Below, in pieces: positions 18,319-62,635 of a DNA stretch of 64,000 bases (its first letter is position 1; each line of letters opens with the position of its first letter). The DNA is from an uncultured Planctomycetota bacterium (lineage in GTDB: Bacteria > Planctomycetota > Planctomycetia > Gemmatales > Gemmataceae). The position numbers and the translations under genes are program-made. The DNA lies in assembly GCA_963849325.1 (NCBI GenBank), contig CAWKHF010000002.1, positions 32,001 through 96,000 on the forward strand, read 5' to 3'. The notes under the pieces were generated by a model. It was given only the letters and a program-made list of their open reading frames with translations. It did no database searches and was not told the DNA's origin.

Positions 18319-21300
18319 AGGCGAAGAGACGAGCCTACCGCCCATCCGCCGTCAGCTGCTCAGCGCGGAGCGGCTGCCGCAGGAGCTGAAGCGCGTCCAG
18401 GACGGCGTTCTCGGTCCGCCTGCCGCTCGCCGAGTTCGATGCGCGGGTCGAGAAGGCGGTGCGGGCCGGCGCGCGCCCAGGACCCCGCCGCGTCTGCTGG
18501 AGTCGCGCTATCACGCCGCCCTCCAGGGCGAAGCGCTGATCGGCGATGGCCAATGGAAGCTTCTCCACACCGGATCGAGTCCGGGGCTGATGAACCTGGA
18601 GCCGTTCAACCTGGCGCTGCGGCAGGCGCGGTTCGAGAACGGCGACGCCCTCGTCGCCGCCTTCGACGACAAGACTCCCGCCCTGCTGGTCGAGACGGCG
18701 GGCGAACAGACGGTGTCGCTGGAATGGTCGGCTCGCGCCGAGGCCGACCCGGAAGGGTTGCGCTTCCGTCTGGAGGTGCCGCCCTGCCCGGTCGCGCTCC
18801 TGGAACTGGACGTGCCGGCCGGGCCGCGCCGTGACCTTGCTCGGGGCGGGCGACGATTCGCTCCTGCTGTCCGGACCGTACGCGGCGGAGGCTGCCGAGC
18901 TGCGCCGCTGGAAGATCGTCTGGCGCGGACGCCGCACAGTCGATTTCCGCATCCGGCCCGGCGGATCGCCCGACGGGCGGCGCCGAGCCGGCGACCGTCG
19001 CGTTCGTGCGTCAGAAGACGACTCAGAAGCTGTACCCGCGAAGGATTGGACGCTACCTTTGAGCTGACGCTGGAATGCGTCGGACGCGCGGGGTCCGCGA
19101 ACTGGTCTGCGAATGCGATCCGGAGCTGCGTCCTCGCGACGTGGTTGGCCCGAGCGTGGACGGTTACTCGTTTCAGGCCGGGGACGGCGGCACACCTTCC
19201 CGCTCTGACGATCCGCCTCCGCGAGCCAATCCGCGAGGGGACGTGGCAAATCTCCTGTCTGTCTCCGCTGAGAACGCGCCGGCACCGGCAGGATCGGCCC
19301 ACGCGGTCTCGTGGAGAAGTCCCGGACTCCGCCTGGTGGGCGGCGTGCCGCGCGGCGAGACGCTGGCACTGTGGTTGCACCCCGAACTGCGCGTCGAGGG
19401 TTGGCACCCCGGCGGTTTCCGGCTGGTCAGCTCACGATACCGAGCGGCAGACGGGCATGCAGCACCTGACGCTGGTGGGCGGCGGTCTGGGGCCGGAAGG
19501 GGCGGCCGCCAACGCGCCGCCGCGACGACCGGAGGCGCGAGTCCAGGCTTATGGGGTCGAGTTCCGCGCCCGCCAGATCGCCTGGTGGCGCTGCGACGCC
19601 GCCGGGATGACGCTGACCTTGCAGATCGGCTACGAGGTCAGCCAGGGCCAGCTCTTCCAGTTGCCCGTCCTGCTGCCGGCCGGATGGACCGTCGAGCGCG
19701 TCGAGATGAGTCCGGCCCGGCTGCTGCTCAACTCGCGCGTCCGCACGACGGCGGGGCGATCGACCTTGTACGTCGATCTCGCCCGTCCCCTGGTTTCCGC
19801 CGAACAGGCCCGGCGCGAAGGGCAAGCCGATGCCCGAAAGTTCTGGTGATGGACGCGCCGCACCCTGTCGCACCGGGGCGTTCGCGCGTGCCGACCCTGA
19901 CGGTCTCATCTGCGACCGGGATGGCCCGGTCCCGTGACCGGCCGACCGCTGCCCTTCCCCGATGCCGTGCCGCTGGGAGCGCGCTTCCGCGAAGGCGTCC
20001 TCGCCCTGGAGTGCGACGAGCAACTGTTCCATCTCGACGTGCGGACGACGGCGGATCGGTCGGATCCGGAGGAGGACGGCCCGTGGGGCAAGCAGCTTCC
20101 CGAGTATTCCTACCGCTATCGCGGCCACGCTCTGTCGGGAACGCTGCTCGTTCAGCCGCGGCCGCCACGCCTGCGGGCCAAGTGTAGTAGTGAAGTCTTC
20201 GTCGCCTCGGGCCGGGCGGCGGTCGAGACGCATCTGCTCGTGGAAGCCGAGGTCGGCAGGCCGGACACGATCGACCTGCTCCTGTCGGAGAGCGACGGCG
20301 AACCGTGGCAGTGGCAGAATGAATCGGCCCGCCGCGACGGTGCATCGAGCGGCAACCTCGTCCGGCGGGCCGAACGGCTGTACGCGGTGGAAGCGGCCGG
20401 CGCCTTGCACGGTCTGGCCGCGCGCACCCCGCTGCAGGCGGCTATCCTGCTCGCCGCCCGCCCCGTGGGCGAACGCTGGCGTCTGACGCTGGCCCGGCCG
20501 CTGCGGACGCGCGAGCCGCTCCGCCTGCGCGCCATGCGTCCGCTGCGGCCGCGCGACGAACGCTGGCACGTACCGCTGCCGGTCGTCCTCGGCGCCGGCC
20601 GGATGGAAGGCGAAGTCACCTTGCACCTGGCCGGGGCTGACCTGGTACAGATTCAGACGGTCGGTCTGCGCGAGACGGCCCCGGCTGCCTCCGACGGCCC
20701 GACACCGTGGCGGACCTTCCGCTACGGACAGGCCGAGGTCGCCCTGACCCTGTGGGGCCAGACCCTGACGGCCGGACACGCCAGCGAGGCCGCGATCGAC
20801 CGTGCCCGCCTCACTACCTACGTCGGCGCCGGCGGCGTTGTGCAGCACCATTTCTCCTTCCAGGTCGCCAACTGGGCGCAGCGCACCTTGCCGTTGCGTT
20901 TGCCGCCGCACTGCCGTCCCGTGGCCGTGCAGGCGGACGGACACTGGCTGCCGCTTCTGGTGTCCTCCGCGCCGGTCCCCGACCGGAGCGACTCTTCCGA
21001 TTCCGGCGATGCGGAGGAACTGAACTTGCCGGTGCCCGGCCGCGACGGCGCGACGGCCGCCGAGACGGTCCACCGTTTCGACATCGTTTATACGCATGCG
21101 CCGCCGTCGTGGCGGCCGTGGCAGTCCGTGGCGGCGCCCGCTCCGGTCCTGCCGGTGACGCCGCTCTCCTTCCGCCGCAGCTGGCGTTTGCCCCCCAACT
21201 GGAGACCGCTGCACGATGGATCGTATCAACCCCTGCCCGGCACGGATAGCGAGGGCGAGCCGTCCGCGTTGCCGCGCCACGTCTCCGACCTGTTCCAGTT

Positions 21301-40133: not shown

Positions 40134-40913
40134 TCACCCCGGATGGGCCTGCAAAAGGGCCAGGACTTCGTCGTGCAGTTTGCCGTTGCTGATGAGCACG
40201 TCGGGGCTGTGGATGTTCGGCTGGCCGCTCCAGTCGCTGAAGCGACCGCCAGCCTCCTCGACGAGCGGCTGGATGGCGGCCACGTCCCAGGCATGTACGC
40301 CATGCTCGATCATCACTTCGCCCGAACCCTGGGCCACCAGAACGTGCCCGTAGTAATCGCCGAAGCCGCGCTGCCGCTCCGTGCGCCGGGTCAATTCCAG
40401 AAACGCTTCCTGACGGCCCGCCTTGAGGAACCACGACAGGCTGGAATAAAAGAGCATCGACCGTGACAGATCGGCCACGTCCGAGACGCGGATGCGGCCA
40501 TCGTTGCGATACGCTCCATCGCCGCGGAGTGCCCGGTAGGTATGTCCCAGGGCCGGCACGTCGGCGACGCCGACGATCACCTCCTCGCGGTATTCCAGGC
40601 CGACGAGGGTGGCCCACAGAGGAATGCCGCGGACGAAGTTGCGCGTGCCGTCGATGGGATCGATGATCCAGCGGAAGCCGGATGAGCCGGGCGTGTCGCC
40701 GAACTCTTCACCGAGGAAGCCGTCGCCCGGGAAGGCGCCGAGCAGCGTCTGCCGCAGCAGTTGCTCGGCCTCGCGGTCGGCCACGGTGACGGGACTGCAA
40801 TCGGCCTTCCATTCGACCTGGAACGAGCCGTCGAAATAGCGCAGGGCCAGCTGCCCGGCCTTGTGAGCCGCCTCGACGGCCAACTCGTAGCGGCTTCGCC
40901 ATTCCGGGTTCAC
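40134..40913 (-). CDS. hisN: Histidinol-phosphatase, inositol monophosphatase family
   Basis: KADCSPVTVADREAE, GEEFG, WIIDPIDGTRNFVRGIPLWATL, RGFGDYY, WDVAA. Confidence 0.85.
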   Translation of the reverse strand: MNPEWRSRYELAVEAAHKAGQLALRYFDGSFQVEWKADCSPVTVADREAEQLLRQTLLGAFPGDGFLGEEFGDTPGSSGFRWIIDPIDGTRNFVRGIPLWATLVGLEYREEVIVGVADVPALGHTYRALRGDGAYRNDGRIRVSDVADLSRSMLFYSSLSWFLKAGRQEAFLELTRRTERQRGFGDYYGHVLVAQGSGEVMIEHGVHAWDVAAIQPLVEEAGGRFSDWSGQPNIHSPDVLISNGKLHDEVLALLQAHPG

Positions 40914-40976
40914 GACATCTCCTTACGAATGCCCTAGACCGCAGCGTTTGTTTTACGGCAAGGCGGGGTGTCTGTC

Positions 40977-41185
40977 TTCCGAAAGCCGCTTGCGGCTTAG
41001 CGTAGCGAGAACGCTAAGTGTCTGTCCCGTAAGCCCCTCTCCTCCTGTACTCAGGGGGAGAGGGGTTGGGGTGAGGGGGTGCGGTTTCCCAGGGCTTGCC
41101 GCCCCCTCACCCCCAACCCCTCTCCCCCGAGTACGGGGGAGAGGGGCTTACCGGACAGACGCTAAGCCGCAAGCAGCTTTCGGAA
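40977..41185. repeat. REP-like palindrome (AGCCGCTTGCGGCTTAGC) interrupted by a MITE
   Basis: Arms TTCCGAAAGCCGCTTGCGGCTTAGCGT and GCTAAGCCGCAAGCAGCTTTCGGAA. Confidence 0.8.
41018..41162. mobile_element. 145-bp MITE-like element with 16-bp terminal inverted repeats and TAA target duplication
   Basis: Left GTGTCTGTCCCGTAAG vs right reverse complement GCGTCTGTCCGGTAAG; TAA at 41015-41017 and 41163-41165. Confidence 0.7.
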
Positions 41186-41204
41186 CAGGCTCTGAAGTTG
41201 GAGA

Positions 41205-41220
41205 TGGCCCCGGATTTGCA
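41205..41220 (+). promoter_or_regulatory. sigma54 -24/-12 promoter
   Basis: TGGCCCCGGATTTGCA with correct GG-N10-GC spacing, 30 bp before ATG 41251. Confidence 0.6.
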
Positions 41221-41250
41221 CTATGATCCTCGGATCAAAGGAGGTGCAAC

Positions 41251-41559
41251 ATGGCCGATGACAGGATACGCGAACAGACCATCGGGGAGACGCAGACGGG
41301 CGACCAGCCGGAGAACGTCCCACTGGAAGAACCCCTCCCCAGCACGAACGACCCGGGCGGAGCGCGATCCAAGGGCTACTCCGCCGAGCAGCGGCCGAAG
41401 GCGGATGTCAAGAAGGAAGGGCCGCTGCCCCTGGTGCCCGGTCACGATACCGGGTCCGAGGTCCAGCAGCCCGAACGTGACGGCAAGGTGCAACCCACAG
41501 GGCGAAGTGAACCGGGCGCGTACACCCCCAATGACCGCTTGATGGGTTCCGATCGGTGA
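41251..41559 (+). CDS. Small hydrophilic, probably disordered hypothetical protein (102 aa)
   Basis: Strong AAGGAGG RBS; P/E/G/D/T-rich ORF. Confidence 0.75.
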   Translation: MADDRIREQTIGETQTGDQPENVPLEEPLPSTNDPGGARSKGYSAEQRPKADVKKEGPLPLVPGHDTGSEVQQPERDGKVQPTGRSEPGAYTPNDRLMGSDR

Positions 41560-41614
41560 TAGGACTAAGATAAAAAAGATCTTTTTTGTCTGAATAATTA
41601 TACATGACTGCGGA

Positions 41615-41889
41615 GAAAAGAAAAAAGGCGATCCTCGGGGGAGCGAGGATCGCCTCTGCACGGGGGCCACAGGCCGGAACACGGAGGGGATGGAATGGCG
41701 AGCGGGGGAGGCCGCCATTCGTCGGGCATCTGCCCGGCGTCCGTCCGCGCATCTGGGGGGACAGACACAAGGACGAAGGGCAAACCGGGTTGGCCCTATC
41801 CGGACGCCGCATTCGCAAGCCAACGGACGAACTCTCGCGGGGGAGCGAAAGTCACTCGGCCGCCTCGCGCCGTGCGTCCGGACAACACC
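41615..41889 (-). ncRNA. Candidate sigma54-dependent sRNA with four UCCCC(C)-loop hairpins
   Basis: Promoter at 41900-41915, hairpins at 41830-41853, 41749-41768, 41693-41720, 41626-41655, then U-tract; no credible ORF. Confidence 0.7.
41616..41655 (-). terminator. Rho-independent terminator
   Basis: AGGCGATCCTCG-CTCCCC-CGAGGATCGCCT followed by TTTTTCTTTT on the minus strand. Confidence 0.85.
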
Positions 41890-41899
41890 TTTCCCTGAA

Positions 41900-41915
41900 A
41901 GCAACTCGAATGCCA
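41900..41915 (-). promoter_or_regulatory. sigma54 -24/-12 promoter
   Basis: Minus strand TGGCATTCGAGTTGCT. Confidence 0.75.
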
Positions 41916-42071
41916 ATGCCGCGGGCCGTCGGGCACAAAATAGAGACGAACGACCCAACTTTCAAACATGGTGACAGTTGCGGCAGCACGTTCGGTACGG
42001 CGGTGGGATGGAAGGCGGATGAGCCACCGGGCGGCTTGTAAATGGTGCCGGCGTCCTTGTAAGTCCTGCCC

Positions 42072-43562
42072 TCAATTCGACGTGGCCGAGTTGGGGTCTG
42101 TCCGGTCTTTTTCCTGGTTTTCGCCCGACTTGTTTTTCTTGCCCACAACGCGCTTGAGTATCCAGGCGATGCCGCCCGCCGCGACGAGGGCGGCGGCACC
42201 GACGGATAGCATGATGGCGTCGCGCCGGCTCAGCCGAGCCAGGGGAGTCGTTGTCCTTGGAGCGACGGCCACCATCTCGACGTCGGCTGTCGGGGCGGGG
42301 GCCGATGGGGCGACGGAGGTCGCCATCGGGACCGAACGGGCGGCACTCGGGGCCGCGACGGGTGCGGCCACCGGCACCGAAGGGACATCCGGCCGGAACT
42401 CGACGGTTGGCGTCTCCTCGCCGCTGGTGGAGTCCAGCCAATCGAGGTAGGCGCGCATCTGCGGACTGGCTTCGCGGGGGGCCGGCTCCGACCCGGCGGC
42501 GAGGAAGACCTGCAACGCCTGGGCGGCGCGTTCGGGAGTCGGATAACGCTGGGCGGGATCCTTGGCCATCATCCAGTTGACGATGTGCTGCAAGCCGTCG
42601 GGCACCGCCGGATTGAATTTCTTCAGGGCCGGCACCGGCTCGCTGGCGTGACGCATCATCTTGCGGACCATATTCGACTCGGGGTAAGGAGGTTGGCCGG
42701 CCAGGGCGTGGAAGAGCGTGCAGCCCAGGCTGTAGATGTCGGCGCGAATGTCGGCGGCGTGCGCGTCGCGGGCCTGCTCGGGAGCCATGTAATCCGGCGT
42801 GCCGAGGATGGTGCCGTCGGCGGTGAGGTTGGCGTTCGCGCCGGCGTCGGCCTCGTCGAAGAGGGCGCGGCCCATGCCGATGTCGAGAATTTTCACCGTC
42901 GCGTTCAGGGTGGAACCGGCTAGTCCGTCATCGGCACCGGGCAACAGCATGAGATTGCTGGGATTGAGGTCGCGGTGGACCATGCCGTCCTCGTGCAGGT
43001 ACTCCAGGCCGAGCAGCGCCTGATAGAGGAGACGTACCGCCTCGGCCGGCGGCAGTTTGCCGCGCCGCTTGAGCACGTCTTCCAGCGTTTCCCCATCCAG
43101 ATACTCCATGACAAGGTAATGCAGGCCGTTATCCTCGGCGATCTGGAAGGTACGGACTATATGGGGGTGTTTGAGACGCAGGGAGAGACGCCCCTCGCGC
43201 TGGAAGCGGGCGAAAGCGTTGGCGTCCTTGGCCTTGGACGGCGGCAGTACCTTGATGGCCACGATCGGACCGAGGCGATGGATGGCCTTGTAGACACCGG
43301 CCATGCGACCGACGCCGATACGCTCGAGCAATTTGTACTCGTTGAGGAAAAAGCGATCGGCATGGCCGCGCCGCAACATGCCGGCCTGGTACTCCGTGAC
43401 ATACTGGCCACTAACGAGCCATTGACAGAACTTGGCGGAGTCGGACGCCGCCGCGCCGGCCTCGCCGAGCCAGCGCTGGCGCAGTCTACGGACCTCGTCG
43501 GCGGTGACGAGCTTGCTGCGGGCCAGTAGATTGCAGAGTGTTTCGACGGATGGGATATCCAT
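42072..43562 (-). CDS. Hanks-type Ser/Thr protein kinase with C-terminal TM segment
   Basis: IGVGRMAGVY, VAIK, HRDLNPSN, DIG, GTPDYMAPEQ, DIYSLG. Confidence 0.92.
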   Translation of the reverse strand: MDIPSVETLCNLLARSKLVTADEVRRLRQRWLGEAGAAASDSAKFCQWLVSGQYVTEYQAGMLRRGHADRFFLNEYKLLERIGVGRMAGVYKAIHRLGPIVAIKVLPPSKAKDANAFARFQREGRLSLRLKHPHIVRTFQIAEDNGLHYLVMEYLDGETLEDVLKRRGKLPPAEAVRLLYQALLGLEYLHEDGMVHRDLNPSNLMLLPGADDGLAGSTLNATVKILDIGMGRALFDEADAGANANLTADGTILGTPDYMAPEQARDAHAADIRADIYSLGCTLFHALAGQPPYPESNMVRKMMRHASEPVPALKKFNPAVPDGLQHIVNWMMAKDPAQRYPTPERAAQALQVFLAAGSEPAPREASPQMRAYLDWLDSTSGEETPTVEFRPDVPSVPVAAPVAAPSAARSVPMATSVAPSAPAPTADVEMVAVAPRTTTPLARLSRRDAIMLSVGAAALVAAGGIAWILKRVVGKKNKSGENQEKDRTDPNSATSN

Positions 43563-46964: not shown

Positions 46965-48491
46965 CTAAATCTCGGCCCCCATGTCGTACTGCTGCTCGTC
47001 CTCGCGGACGCCGCCCATGCCGGCGCCGATCGTGCGGTAGTCCTCAACCACGTCGATGGAGCGCAGGAACTTGACCATCTTGAAGCCCAACTTGGTCTCG
47101 AACCGCACCCGTACCGGGGCGCCGCTCTGGATCGGCAACTCCTGACCGTTCAACTCATAAGCCAGGATGGATTGGGCATGCCGCCCGATGTCCAGGCTGA
47201 CGCATTCGTAATAGATCTTGTCGCTCTTTTCGTGCTTGGCGAACGACGTGAACACCAGGTAGCGCGCGCCGGGCAACGGTTTGCAGCGCTCGAGGACGTC
47301 CCGCAGCGGGACGCCGCCCCATCGGCCGACCGAGGTCCAGCCCTGGATGCAGTGGTGCAAGGTCGTCTGCTCCTGCTTGGGCAGGGCGCGCAATTCTTTC
47401 AGCGACAGTTTCAGCGGTCGCTCGACCATTCCCTTTATTTCCAGCTGGTAGTCGGCGAACTGATTGCGCAGCAGACGCTCGTAGGCGTCATCGTCGCCCT
47501 TGGCCTGCGGATAGGCGGAGATCGGTGGATAGCCGTTGGTCCGAAAATAGGGTGAAATGTCCTTCTCGGAATATTCCTGCGCCGAGTTCAGGTTGTGTAG
47601 CAGCATCTCCCGGATCGGACCGACGAGGGAAGAGAGCAGGACGTGGACGCGATGCTTGGCCGTCCGGGAGAAGTGACTGGCGGCCACGTGAATCAGCACG
47701 ATGGTCGTGAGAATACTCAATCCCAGCAACACGCCCAGCCAACTCCCTTCCGAGTGCGGCTCATTCAGCACCTGCTTGTCCATCTCCTTGGCGAATCCAT
47801 GCCAGAATACCATGATAATGTGAATCACGGCATACATGCCGATCATCACCAGGCCAATAAAGTGCAGGCTGCGCGCCGCCTGCCGATTGCCGAACAGTCG
47901 GCCGTACCATGGGAAGCGCCCAGGATCGACGGCGATTGGGCCAGGCCGGTCAGGATCTGGAAGGGAACCAGGAAAAAGATGAACCCGAAATAGGTGAGCT
48001 GTTGCAGGGAGTTGAACGGCAGGTAGCCGGGAGCGTAGCAGAACCTCGGATCCTCGGGTTCGGGTACGCCGAACTGGAGATACTCGATCATCGTCCGCCA
48101 GGCACAGGGAAAGATCTCCCACGAACGTCGGCACCAATCGCCGCCACTGATCGGACGTAAACAGAACAAGGAGATAAGCCAGTCCGACAATCAGCCAGCA
48201 GAAGGCGTCGAAGAAGTGCCAGTAGCGGCCCAGACCCAGCCCCTCGCCTCCCGGCAGCGTCAGCCAGCCGGGCCAGTGTTTCTCCTCGTCGGAGGAACAC
48301 CACATCTGATCGGTCGGGAGCTTGCGGCGCAGAAGATCCAGCCATTCGCTGCCCGGCCGAGCGTCGATGTTCCAGTAGAGTTTGGGGTGCGCCGCCAGGA
48401 TCGCCAGGCCGCTGCGAGCGATGAGGGTGATAAACAGGAGGTTGAACCAGTGCGTCAGCCGCACGCCGAGAGGGAAGCCAAGCTCGTCCAT
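46965..48491 (-). CDS. Molybdopterin-dependent oxidoreductase (MsrP/YedY-like) fused to an N-terminal cytochrome b domain (two compensating frameshifts)
   Basis: VRLTHWFN, RYWHF, ARSLHF..HI; HHCIQGWTSVGRWGG, LAYELNG, GAPVRVR..KLGFKMVK. Confidence 0.88.
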   Translation of the reverse strand: MDELGFPLGVRLTHWFNLLFITLIARSGLAILAAHPKLYWNIDARPGSEWLDLLRRKLPTDQMWCSSDEEKHWPGWLTLPGGEGLGLGRYWHFFDAFCWLIVGLAYLLVLFTSDQWRRLVPTFVGDLSLCLADDDRVSPVRRTRTRGSEVLLRSRLPAVQLPATAHLFRVHLFPGSLPDPDRPGPIAVDPGRFPWYGRLFGNRQAARSLHFIGLVMIGMYAVIHIIMVFWHGFAKEMDKQVLNEPHSEGSWLGVLLGLSILTTIVLIHVAASHFSRTAKHRVHVLLSSLVGPIREMLLHNLNSAQEYSEKDISPYFRTNGYPPISAYPQAKGDDDAYERLLRNQFADYQLEIKGMVERPLKLSLKELRALPKQEQTTLHHCIQGWTSVGRWGGVPLRDVLERCKPLPGARYLVFTSFAKHEKSDKIYYECVSLDIGRHAQSILAYELNGQELPIQSGAPVRVRFETKLGFKMVKFLRSIDVVEDYRTIGAGMGGVREDEQQYDMGAEI

Positions 48492-48585
48492 ATCGTCTCT
48501 ACTCTCTTTGCCCGGCCGGGCGAACGCGCCGGAACCGATTCCGGGCGAACGGCGAAAGGTGTCGTCGAAAGGGCGTCCACGGCGT

Positions 48586-49137
48586 TCAGCGCACAGCTCG
48601 CTTGCCTCGGAGTGGCCATGCTGGAACAAACAGACGACCAGCTTGCCCAGGGCGCACTCCGAGAGATGGCCGAGCAGGTTGATCCAGCGAACCACGCCTT
48701 GAAGACGCCGCTCCCTGTCCACGACCGCGACGCCAGCGTCGGCGAACCTGTCCAACAGAGACGTCGAGCTTATCGTCGGCCGCGACCGTCGGCACATCGG
48801 TCTTCATCAACTCGCCAACCGTCAGACGCTCCATCTGGCCGGCGCGGTCGGCCACGGCCAGCGCCAAGGTGCGATCCGTCAGGAAGCCGAGAAGCCGACC
48901 GTCGGAGACAACGAAGACCGCCGAGAATGCCGAATCGCGGAGGGTCCGCGCACCTTCGGCGGCGGAGGCGTTGGGAGCACACGTAGGTATCTGCCGCGAC
49001 ATCACGTCCGCGATCTTGAGCATGGGATTGAGCAGGTCCGACTCCTTCACGAGCGGGACCGGATGAGGATACGACCAGGGCGATGGCTCCATGTTCCAGT
49101 GATGGGGCTTCTGCCATTGATTGGTGTCCACGGACAC
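48586..49137 (-). CDS. CBS domain protein (frameshifted; 3' end uncertain)
   Basis: GGAGGAG RBS plus GTG; KIADVMSR, VVSDGRLLGFLTDR, TVGELMKTDV, VVDRERRLQGVV. Confidence 0.7.
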   Translation of the reverse strand: MSVDTNQWQKPHHWNMEPSPWSYPHPVPLVKESDLLNPMLKIADVMSRQIPTCAPNASAAEGARTLRDSAFSAVFVVSDGRLLGFLTDRTLALAVADRAGQMERLTVGELMKTDVPTVAADDKLDVSVGQVRRRWRRGRGQGAASSRRGSLDQPARPSLGVRPGQAGRLFVPAWPLRGKRAVR

Positions 49138-49215: not shown

Positions 49216-49231
49216 AGCAAGGGTCATGCCA
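49216..49231 (-). promoter_or_regulatory. sigma54 -24/-12 promoter
   Basis: Minus strand TGGCATGACCCTTGCT about 80 bp upstream of the CBS gene. Confidence 0.7.
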
Positions 49232-62619: not shown

Positions 62620-62635
62620 AGCAACGATCATGCCA
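62620..62635 (-). promoter_or_regulatory. sigma54 -24/-12 promoter upstream of dnaK
   Basis: Minus strand TGGCATGATCGTTGCT. Confidence 0.7.

Follow-up and report, generated by a model that had tools for sequence, protein, structure and literature searches.

Bacterial small RNAs (sRNAs) that set C-rich loops against G-rich ribosome-binding sites represent a recurring design. In RsaE/RoxS, LhrC and RNAIII of the Firmicutes, UCCC motifs located in loops, several per RNA, pair with Shine-Dalgarno (SD) regions. The locus considered here would be an independent case of this design, joined to sigma54 and apparently without Hfq. It lies within a stretch of 64,000 nucleotides (the window) from an uncultured Planctomycetota bacterium of the family Gemmataceae (assembly GCA_963849325.1, contig CAWKHF010000002.1, positions 32,001 to 96,000), and, as judged from its sequence, it is a gene for a small regulatory RNA of Gemmataceae that had not been described before, and a member of a class with siblings. 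The Firmicutes RNAs are shorter, are not sigma54-dependent and have no homology to it.

The best functional analogue, by likeness of design, appears to be sX13 of Xanthomonas. According to the part of its description used here, sX13 has three C-rich loops, represses mRNAs carrying G-rich motifs near their start codons, and does not need Hfq (PMC3771888). Like the RNA in the window, it forms several stable hairpins with CCCC/CCCCC apical loops and belongs to a G+C-rich genome. It differs in its length of 115 nt, its three loops and its phylum; no sequence homology is evident between the two, Rfam gave no matching model here, and the same part of the description mentions no sigma54 or enhancer (PMC3771888). 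The cuckoo RNAs (CcsR) of Alphaproteobacteria also resemble this RNA, having two to four adjacent hairpins whose stems differ in sequence and whose loops share one C-rich motif; in the portion of the source drawn on here, the family is defined by the loop motif CCUCCUCCC (PMC4615179). Membership in the cuckoo family is rejected, as CCUCCUCCC is absent and the loops here are UCCCCC, CUCCCCC or UCCCCCC. The phylum and the promoter differ as well.

Another likeness is to the 6C RNA of Actinobacteria (RF01066), whose hairpin loops contain about six C residues. However, 6C RNA has two hairpins in ~75 model positions, and its model scores 21.2 and 19.0 bits here (E = 3 and 7.6, respectively), below the gathering score of 47. 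Thus, this RNA is not a 6C member. In general, Rfam 15 gave no match at the gathering score in the 64-kb window or in seven loci with siblings and distant members, and a permissive scan returned only sub-threshold matches to 6C and mir-3150. In this respect, the novelty that a first-pass annotation of the window had proposed, working from the letters alone, holds.

The closest regulatory analogue appears to be the sigma54/LuxO-Qrr circuit of Vibrio, in which sibling sRNAs with sigma54 promoters answer to a single enhancer-binding protein and serve as the post-transcriptional arm of a signalling pathway. Qrr RNAs are ~100 nt long and Hfq-dependent, and what they use for pairing is a conserved single-stranded region instead of C-rich loops. 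No Rfam match to Qrr was obtained here.

Planctomycetota have an unusual cell biology and signalling repertoires of very large size. A full-text literature search found no description of such an RNA, nor of a small-RNA regulator in this phylum. In the main text of a sigma54-regulon survey that covers Planctomycetia, the terms sRNA, small RNA and non-coding are all absent (PMC12316311).

The RNA gene, its strand and its promoter

Sequence evidence supports the core reading of a sigma54-dependent, independently terminated sRNA that carries a C-rich loop motif on variable stems. Its gene, ends, strand, hairpins, exposed C-runs, promoter and enhancer (Table 1) are each well supported as predictions. 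The first-pass annotation had placed a sigma54 site at 41915-41900 with a start near 41889, followed by an RNA of ~275 nt with four UCCCC(C)-loop hairpins, the last being the terminator, and an additional C-rich stretch between hairpins 3 and 4. All of these are present where they had been placed. The promoter TGGCATTCGAGTTGCT has its GG and GC at the canonical sigma54 spacing, and thus the +1 is predicted near 41889; the additional stretch is CCAUCCCCUCC, a single-stranded run directly after hairpin 3. A terminator scan called 14 pairs at 41657-41624, the sole terminator-like site within 40500-43000. The sRNA folds at -140.1 kcal/mol, far more stably than 200 dinucleotide shuffles (-109.8 +/- 5.3 kcal/mol; z = -5.74; 0/200 equally stable). 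When the 8.16-Mb source genome was scanned for hairpins with CCCC loops, this locus was one of three clusters with at least three such hairpins and the sole one with four.

The RNA is conserved as a unit. By BLAST, full-length homologues (70-75% identity) are present in eight of the 10 genomes from the same genus; of the two misses, one genome is 74% complete and the other, with just a 24-nt match, is 64% complete. A motif pattern matched 16 metagenome loci, and nine of these also hold the RNA as judged by the covariance model R1; the remaining seven, which lack a model match (best 10.3 bits), are set aside as chance. MAFFT alignment of the 12 orthologues with upstream sequence shows in every case that the conserved block spans from the -24/-12 box to the U-tract, while the flanks are unrelated. 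Homologue lengths are 266, 273-278, 295 and 316 nt.

The covariance model was made from nine sequences and a hand-drawn structure, and was used to align 25 matches, 14 of them distinct. In this alignment, 92.6% of cells are paired, and 18 pairs have changes on both sides, compared with 8.6 +/- 2.0 in 500 shuffles (0/500 reach 18) and 6-10 in slid controls. These both-side changes fall in hairpin 1 (3/8 pairs), hairpin 2 (8/14), hairpin 3 (5/12) and the terminator (two). A separate MAFFT/RNAalifold run gave 13 compensated pairs. Two considerations weigh on the other side. First, the alignment behind the pair counts was fitted to model R1. Second, three helices, namely the stem P1, the long-range helix and the GGCC hairpin, are without covariation support, being neither supported nor contradicted: in P1, 99% of cells are paired, but 7/9 pairs never vary, as is true of 3/4 pairs in the GGCC hairpin, and therefore covariation is uninformative there.

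The loops, in turn, have been kept. UCCCCC is found in the loop of hairpin 2 in 9/13 distinct sequences (two metagenome variants have a 38-nt insertion instead), in that of hairpin 3 in 11/14, and in the terminator loop in 13/14; the loop of hairpin 1 is UCCCCC or UCCCCCC in 10/13. This pattern bears out what the first-pass annotation had argued, that the stems vary while the loop is conserved, and that selection acts on an exposed RNA motif and not on a DNA repeat: the stem pairs covary through compensatory changes, and both BLAST and the covariance model find the RNA sequence only once in the source genome.

An explanation in which there is no RNA gene at all, and the conservation reflects a protein open reading frame (ORF), a DNA repeat or a mobile element, has some apparent basis in that stop-free frames of ~90 codons cross the region on both strands and that the window ORF at 41221-41958 (-) gave tblastn matches in relatives. 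However, these matches are short pieces across different frames, homologue lengths differ by amounts that are not multiples of three, and Pfam is empty for the ORFs that overlap the region. A protein-coding reading is therefore unlikely, and the check for a conserved protein ORF that the first-pass annotation had suggested turned up none. Together with the compensatory stem substitutions and the single genomic copy, this makes the whole explanation highly improbable.

The strand follows from the alignment as well. G-U/U-G cells number 97, compared with 12 A-C/C-A cells, an excess that identifies the minus strand as the RNA strand. This assignment matters because the opposite strand would show GGGGGA loops; the promoter, the U-tract and the G-U/A-C ratio rule that strand out.

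On the minus strand, the C-runs are the exposed part of the molecule. Each RNA has 4-8 C-runs of at least four residues, G-runs of at least four are absent from 13/14 sequences, and the mean unpaired probability is 0.79 for the C-runs versus 0.27 elsewhere. Within the single-stranded stretch that precedes the terminator, CUCCGUGUUCC is identical in 14/14 distinct sequences. The CCUCC in this stretch matches the core of the 16S anti-SD letter for letter.

The promoter is conserved too. GG-N10-GC is kept in 12/12 orthologues, and the bases between and around these positions vary. The source genome contains rpoN (Sigma54_DBD, 196.6 bits at C5:304980-305450) and has 23 Sigma54_activat matches, 14 of which span approximately the whole 168-position domain. 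The strict box TGGCAYN5TTGCW occurs four times in the window, compared with 0.07 expected; the other three are at 19364-19379 (+), 49216-49231 (-) and 62620-62635 (-), the box at 49216 being upstream of a molybdopterin-oxidoreductase/cytochrome b561 ORF (46965-48797). A sigma70-like pair, TTGAAA-17-TATTTT (9/12 matches), lies just upstream of the sigma54 box at 41937-41965 (-); it is not taken as a promoter because its sequence is unconserved in the orthologues.

A conserved enhancer, or upstream activating sequence (UAS), is an addition to the first-pass annotation, which lacked it. Its two TTACAA cores are at 42062-42057 and 42041-42036 (-), and it starts 2 bases past the stop codon of the upstream kinase gene. 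Tandem TTACAA boxes are present in 12/12 orthologues, at the same distance of ~125-150 nt upstream of the sigma54 box. The enhancer pattern has one match in the window versus 0.00 expected, and a relaxed tandem box occurs just four times in the 8.16-Mb genome; two of the four are upstream of the sigma54 boxes of C-rich sRNAs. No activator gene was found within ~1.5 kb of the 92 loci examined, one false-positive locus aside.

The sequence comparisons also indicate that this is a stand-alone gene, independent of the genes around it. Searched with tblastn at 17 loci, the Ser/Thr kinase and inositol monophosphatase genes that flank the RNA in the window gave no match beside the orthologues. The orthologues instead have Pfam-identified ABC-2 transporter, glucose-6-phosphate dehydrogenase, CTP synthase, PLP-enzyme or deacetylase genes as their neighbours. 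This arrangement bears on the idea of a cis-acting leader or attenuator, in which this structure would sit at the 5' end of an mRNA and a signal would cause read-through of the terminator, so that the gene downstream is expressed. A same-strand glucose-6-phosphate dehydrogenase gene does follow the RNA in two loci (L004 and L007), an alpha-amylase-family gene follows in L026, and a related RNA on contig C7, described below, is 115 nt upstream of a kinase/activator operon. Nevertheless, the gene downstream varies among nine orthologues, and in the window the next same-strand Pfam-supported gene starts ~700 nt further on. Moreover, a terminator with a G+C-rich stem of 12-14 bp and a long U-tract is kept in 14/14 sequences, and no alternative anti-terminator pairing is conserved. 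A leader is thus very unlikely, and the locus is best regarded as a free-standing sRNA gene.

Sibling RNAs within Gemmataceae

The source genome has at least two sibling RNAs outside the window with a like enhancer, promoter and C-loop architecture. They surfaced through motif scans only; BLAST and model R1 gave just the locus itself. The sibling on contig C2 has the sigma54 box CGGCACGGGCCTTGCT, a single-stranded CAUCCCCCUCCCUCC and the terminator GAAGCCCUCCGC-UCCCCC-GCGGAGGGCUUC, and it has orthologues in three other genomes, G004, G005 and G008 (loci L081, L083 and L084). The sibling on contig C6, with the sigma54 box CGGCACGCCGGTTGCT, has three degenerate boxes, GTACAT/TTACAT/CTACAA, and ends in the terminator GGGCCAUCCG-UUCCCCC-CGGAUGGCCC. 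A 195-aa gene without a Pfam family lies divergently upstream of the C6 sibling, and the orthologues in L004, L006 and L007 have this gene in the same position.

A related sigma54-driven structured RNA is present on contig C7. Its upstream motif, TTTACCA...TTGTAACAATTGC, is related to but unlike the TTACAA enhancer, and it ends with CCUCCCCUCCCCC and a C-loop terminator. The operon that begins 115 nt downstream of it encodes a HisKA/HATPase kinase and a REC-AAA+-HTH_8 activator, and is an unproven candidate for the regulator of the whole sRNA set.

Searches across the family indicate that the class is broader than the genus. At E <= 0.01, model R1 has full-model matches in 23 of the 151 genomes searched in the family. 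Those in other genera are weaker, with top scores outside the genus of 71 to 32 bits. Among 15 loci of this search that were inspected, 14 have a box of sigma54 type and, after it, strings of hairpins with C-loops, CCCCCG motifs in single-stranded parts and a terminator that also has a C-loop; the other, L040, lacks C-loops and is a false positive. With a strict regular expression, tandem boxes are recovered in 6/14 loci, and degenerate boxes were recognised by eye in the other eight. Enhancer assignments in distant genera are in part visual.

A strict composite pattern (two perfect TTACAA boxes, 80-170 nt, GGCAY-N5-TTGC) occurs at 26 places in 23 of 252 Gemmataceae genomes, representing 13 of 90 genera, and its reversed control at 0. 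After these 26 places, at least one C-loop hairpin is found in 22, two or more in 20, and a C-loop terminator in 20. The four exceptions comprise two places before an ORF of 21-28 codons, one before a protein gene and one before nothing recognisable. A sample of 400 other genomes from across the phylum has it in two. Both places are loci of low G+C content, where it precedes protein genes and no C-rich RNA. Thus, in the genomes searched with the strict pattern, the module with its RNA is seen only in Gemmataceae.

The short ORFs may represent a second kind of product. In L080 and L098, from other Gemmataceae genomes, a TTACAA enhancer and sigma54 promoter precede an ORF encoding ..WPW..(E/D)(T/S)W.D.GGEG. 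This WPW...GGEG ORF of 21-28 codons may encode a small protein or peptide of the same regulon.

Gene neighbourhoods provide hints of what the class controls. In nine loci of other genera (L026, L027, L029, L030, L032, L034, L035, L038 and L043), the C-rich sRNA is divergent from a uxaC-like gene (PF02614, glucuronate isomerase family). The uxaC-like gene of the source genome has no such sRNA upstream. Taken with the sugar-metabolism genes found downstream of the RNA in L004, L007 and L026, these neighbours hint at control of carbohydrate use.

Table 1. Coordinates of the predicted sRNA gene, its parts and neighbours, and its relatives in the source genome. Positions refer to the window unless a contig handle (C2, C6 or C7) is given.
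Feature	Position	Strand	Basis or remark
sRNA	41615-41889	-	~275 nt, predicted +1 to end of U-tract; covariance model R1, 244 bits, full length
Sigma54-type -24/-12 promoter, TGGCATTCGAGTTGCT	41900-41915	-	read from sequence; kept in orthologues
Enhancer (UAS), pair of GGCA-N4-5-TTACAA boxes in direct orientation, 21 nt apart	42035-42070	-	conserved in orthologues
5' domain closed by long-range stem P1	41798-41883	-	minimum-free-energy and centroid folds
P1 arms, GUCCGGACGC with GCGUCCGGAU	41883-41874 with 41807-41798	-	
Hairpin 1, GACUUUCGC-UCCCCC-GCGAGAGUU	41830-41853	-	loop UCCCCC at 41844-41839
Hairpin 2, GUGUCUG-UCCCCC-CAGAUGC	41749-41768; with outer stem, 41741-41776	-	loop at 41761-41756
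Hairpin 3, GAAUGGCGGC-CUCCCCC-GCUCGCCAUUC	41693-41720	-	loop CUCCCCC at 41710-41704
Single-stranded near-invariant stretch, CAUCCCCUCCGUGUUCCGG	41674-41692	-	predicted unpaired; contains CCUCC; candidate seed
Small GGCC-N3-GGCC hairpin	41665-41675	-	RNAalifold prediction
Intrinsic terminator, AGGCGAUCCUCG-CUCCCC-CGAGGAUCGCCU plus U-tract UUUUUUCUUUUC	41615-41657	-	stem 12-14 bp
Ser/Thr kinase gene, upstream neighbour	42072-43562		Pfam
Inositol monophosphatase gene, neighbour	40134-40913		Pfam
Sibling sRNA (L071)	C2:~344093-344513	+	TTACAT/TTACAA boxes, sigma54 box, C-loop hairpins
Shorter sibling (L072), ~190 nt	C6:~545290-545648	+	sigma54 box, several C-runs
Related sigma54-driven structured RNA (L070/L099), ~290 nt	C7:72092-72382	-	conserved in G002, G006, G009 and partly G012

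Proposed mode of action and its alternatives

The elements described above suggest how the RNA might work. RNA polymerase with sigma54 would transcribe the sRNA from the box at 41915-41900, activated by an enhancer-binding protein on the two TTACAA boxes at 42035-42070. The transcript would end at the intrinsic terminator to give a trans-acting sRNA of ~275 nt, and its fold would leave 4-8 C-runs (at least 4 C) exposed, including the four UCCCCC hairpin loops and the invariant single-stranded CCCCUCCGUGUUCC. These C-runs would then pair with G-rich sequences (GGGGGAG, GGAGGGG) at or near the SD sites of several mRNAs, and the pairing would block ribosome binding or alter mRNA stability, with several loops acting on one or multiple targets, apparently without Hfq. 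Since the siblings share a common enhancer and promoter, the sRNA would carry the output of a single signalling pathway at the post-transcriptional level. Expression of the sRNA, its pairing with mRNAs, and the identity of those mRNAs and of the activator are what we infer. Pairing with SD or other G-rich sequences appears, by analogy, to be the likeliest mode of action, with a probability of roughly 0.6.

The source genome does use SD sequences. Among 4651 crude gene starts, GGAG peaks at -13 to -10, at ~4.5% per position versus a background of ~0.5%. Between -20 and -4, GGGGGAG, which matches the loops, is found in 36 genes, and GGAGGGG, which matches the invariant stretch, in 44. However, several results count against pairing with such sites. 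Counted at ribosome-binding sites, the G-rich 7-mers do not outnumber their reversed forms. When five C-rich segments were tested on 4625 start regions, the real segments gave 875 duplexes of <= -18 kcal/mol and the reversed segments 728. Outside its own gene, the genome contains no perfect complement of the invariant seed, and, with 2 mismatches allowed, the seed has eight sites compared with six for the control. These three target predictions yield no excess over reversed controls, and thus no target is named. Hfq was not found in the source genome; its absence is weak evidence, because that genome is just 84.7% complete.

The lack of clear mRNA partners in target prediction would also fit a protein sponge, in which the UCCCCC loops titrate a C-rich single-stranded-RNA-binding protein (KH-type or other poly(C)-binding) in the way that CsrB/RsmZ titrate CsrA by means of GGA loops. 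The presence of the same short motif on at least four hairpins, with the motif conserved and the stems variable, and the shared design of the siblings are consistent with this idea. Still, a sponge is unlikely. No candidate C-binding protein was identified. CsrA itself has nine matches (PF02599) in the source genome, an unusually large family for one genome, but CsrA recognises GGA, which is absent from these loops on the transcribed strand, and a CsrA sponge is ruled out. Furthermore, the characterised sRNAs with multiple C-loops that we know of act by base-pairing. This is the case for RsaE/RoxS and LhrC, and for sX13 as well in the part of its description used here (PMC3771888).

The CsrA paralogues enter into another alternative, an RNA decoy, in which the C-runs would bind a G-rich small RNA, or GGA-rich sites recognised by CsrA, and thereby act as competitors of CsrA without blocking ribosomes directly. 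The size of the CsrA family and the fact that GGGGGAG, the complement of the loop, contains GGA speak for a decoy. The idea is nonetheless speculation and quite improbable; no G-rich sRNA was identified, and clusters of GGGG loops in the hairpin scan are confined to repeats and coding DNA. Pairing of the C-runs with G-rich ribosome-binding sites remains the preferred mode.

A wider proposal can be made only tentatively, and it is somewhat doubtful. One enhancer-binding protein, bound to tandem TTACAA boxes, might act almost only through sibling multi-C-loop sRNAs, plus in some species the WPW...GGEG peptide gene, to reprogram the translation of mRNAs with G-rich SD sites in bacteria that seemingly lack Hfq. 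Such a Gemmataceae-wide regulon, undescribed so far, would have this RNA as one arm and would be a planctomycete counterpart of LuxO-Qrr. The locus offers a complete module for testing, consisting of an enhancer, a sigma54 promoter, a structured RNA with a candidate seed, siblings and family-wide conservation, and it provides an opening for the first study of riboregulation in Planctomycetota. The enhancer could be used as a handle, or bait, toward the activator and its signal.

Other repeated elements were observed in the source genome. Palindromes resembling REP elements, GCCCCUCUCCCCCG...CGGGGGAGAGGGGUUGGGGGUGAGGGGG, are located at C9 ~96600-96720, C12:313590-313794 and C12 ~266130; these are distinct C/G-run hairpins and not sRNAs. 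A 116-codon ORF with an identical 5' region is present in five copies (C12:234242, C12:1443659, C13:80726, C7:188809 and C9:250) and is probably an insertion sequence. Finally, long G-rich tandem repeats of GGCGTC-type hexamers, found at C5:147564-157952 and 857411-857499, probably encode a repetitive protein.

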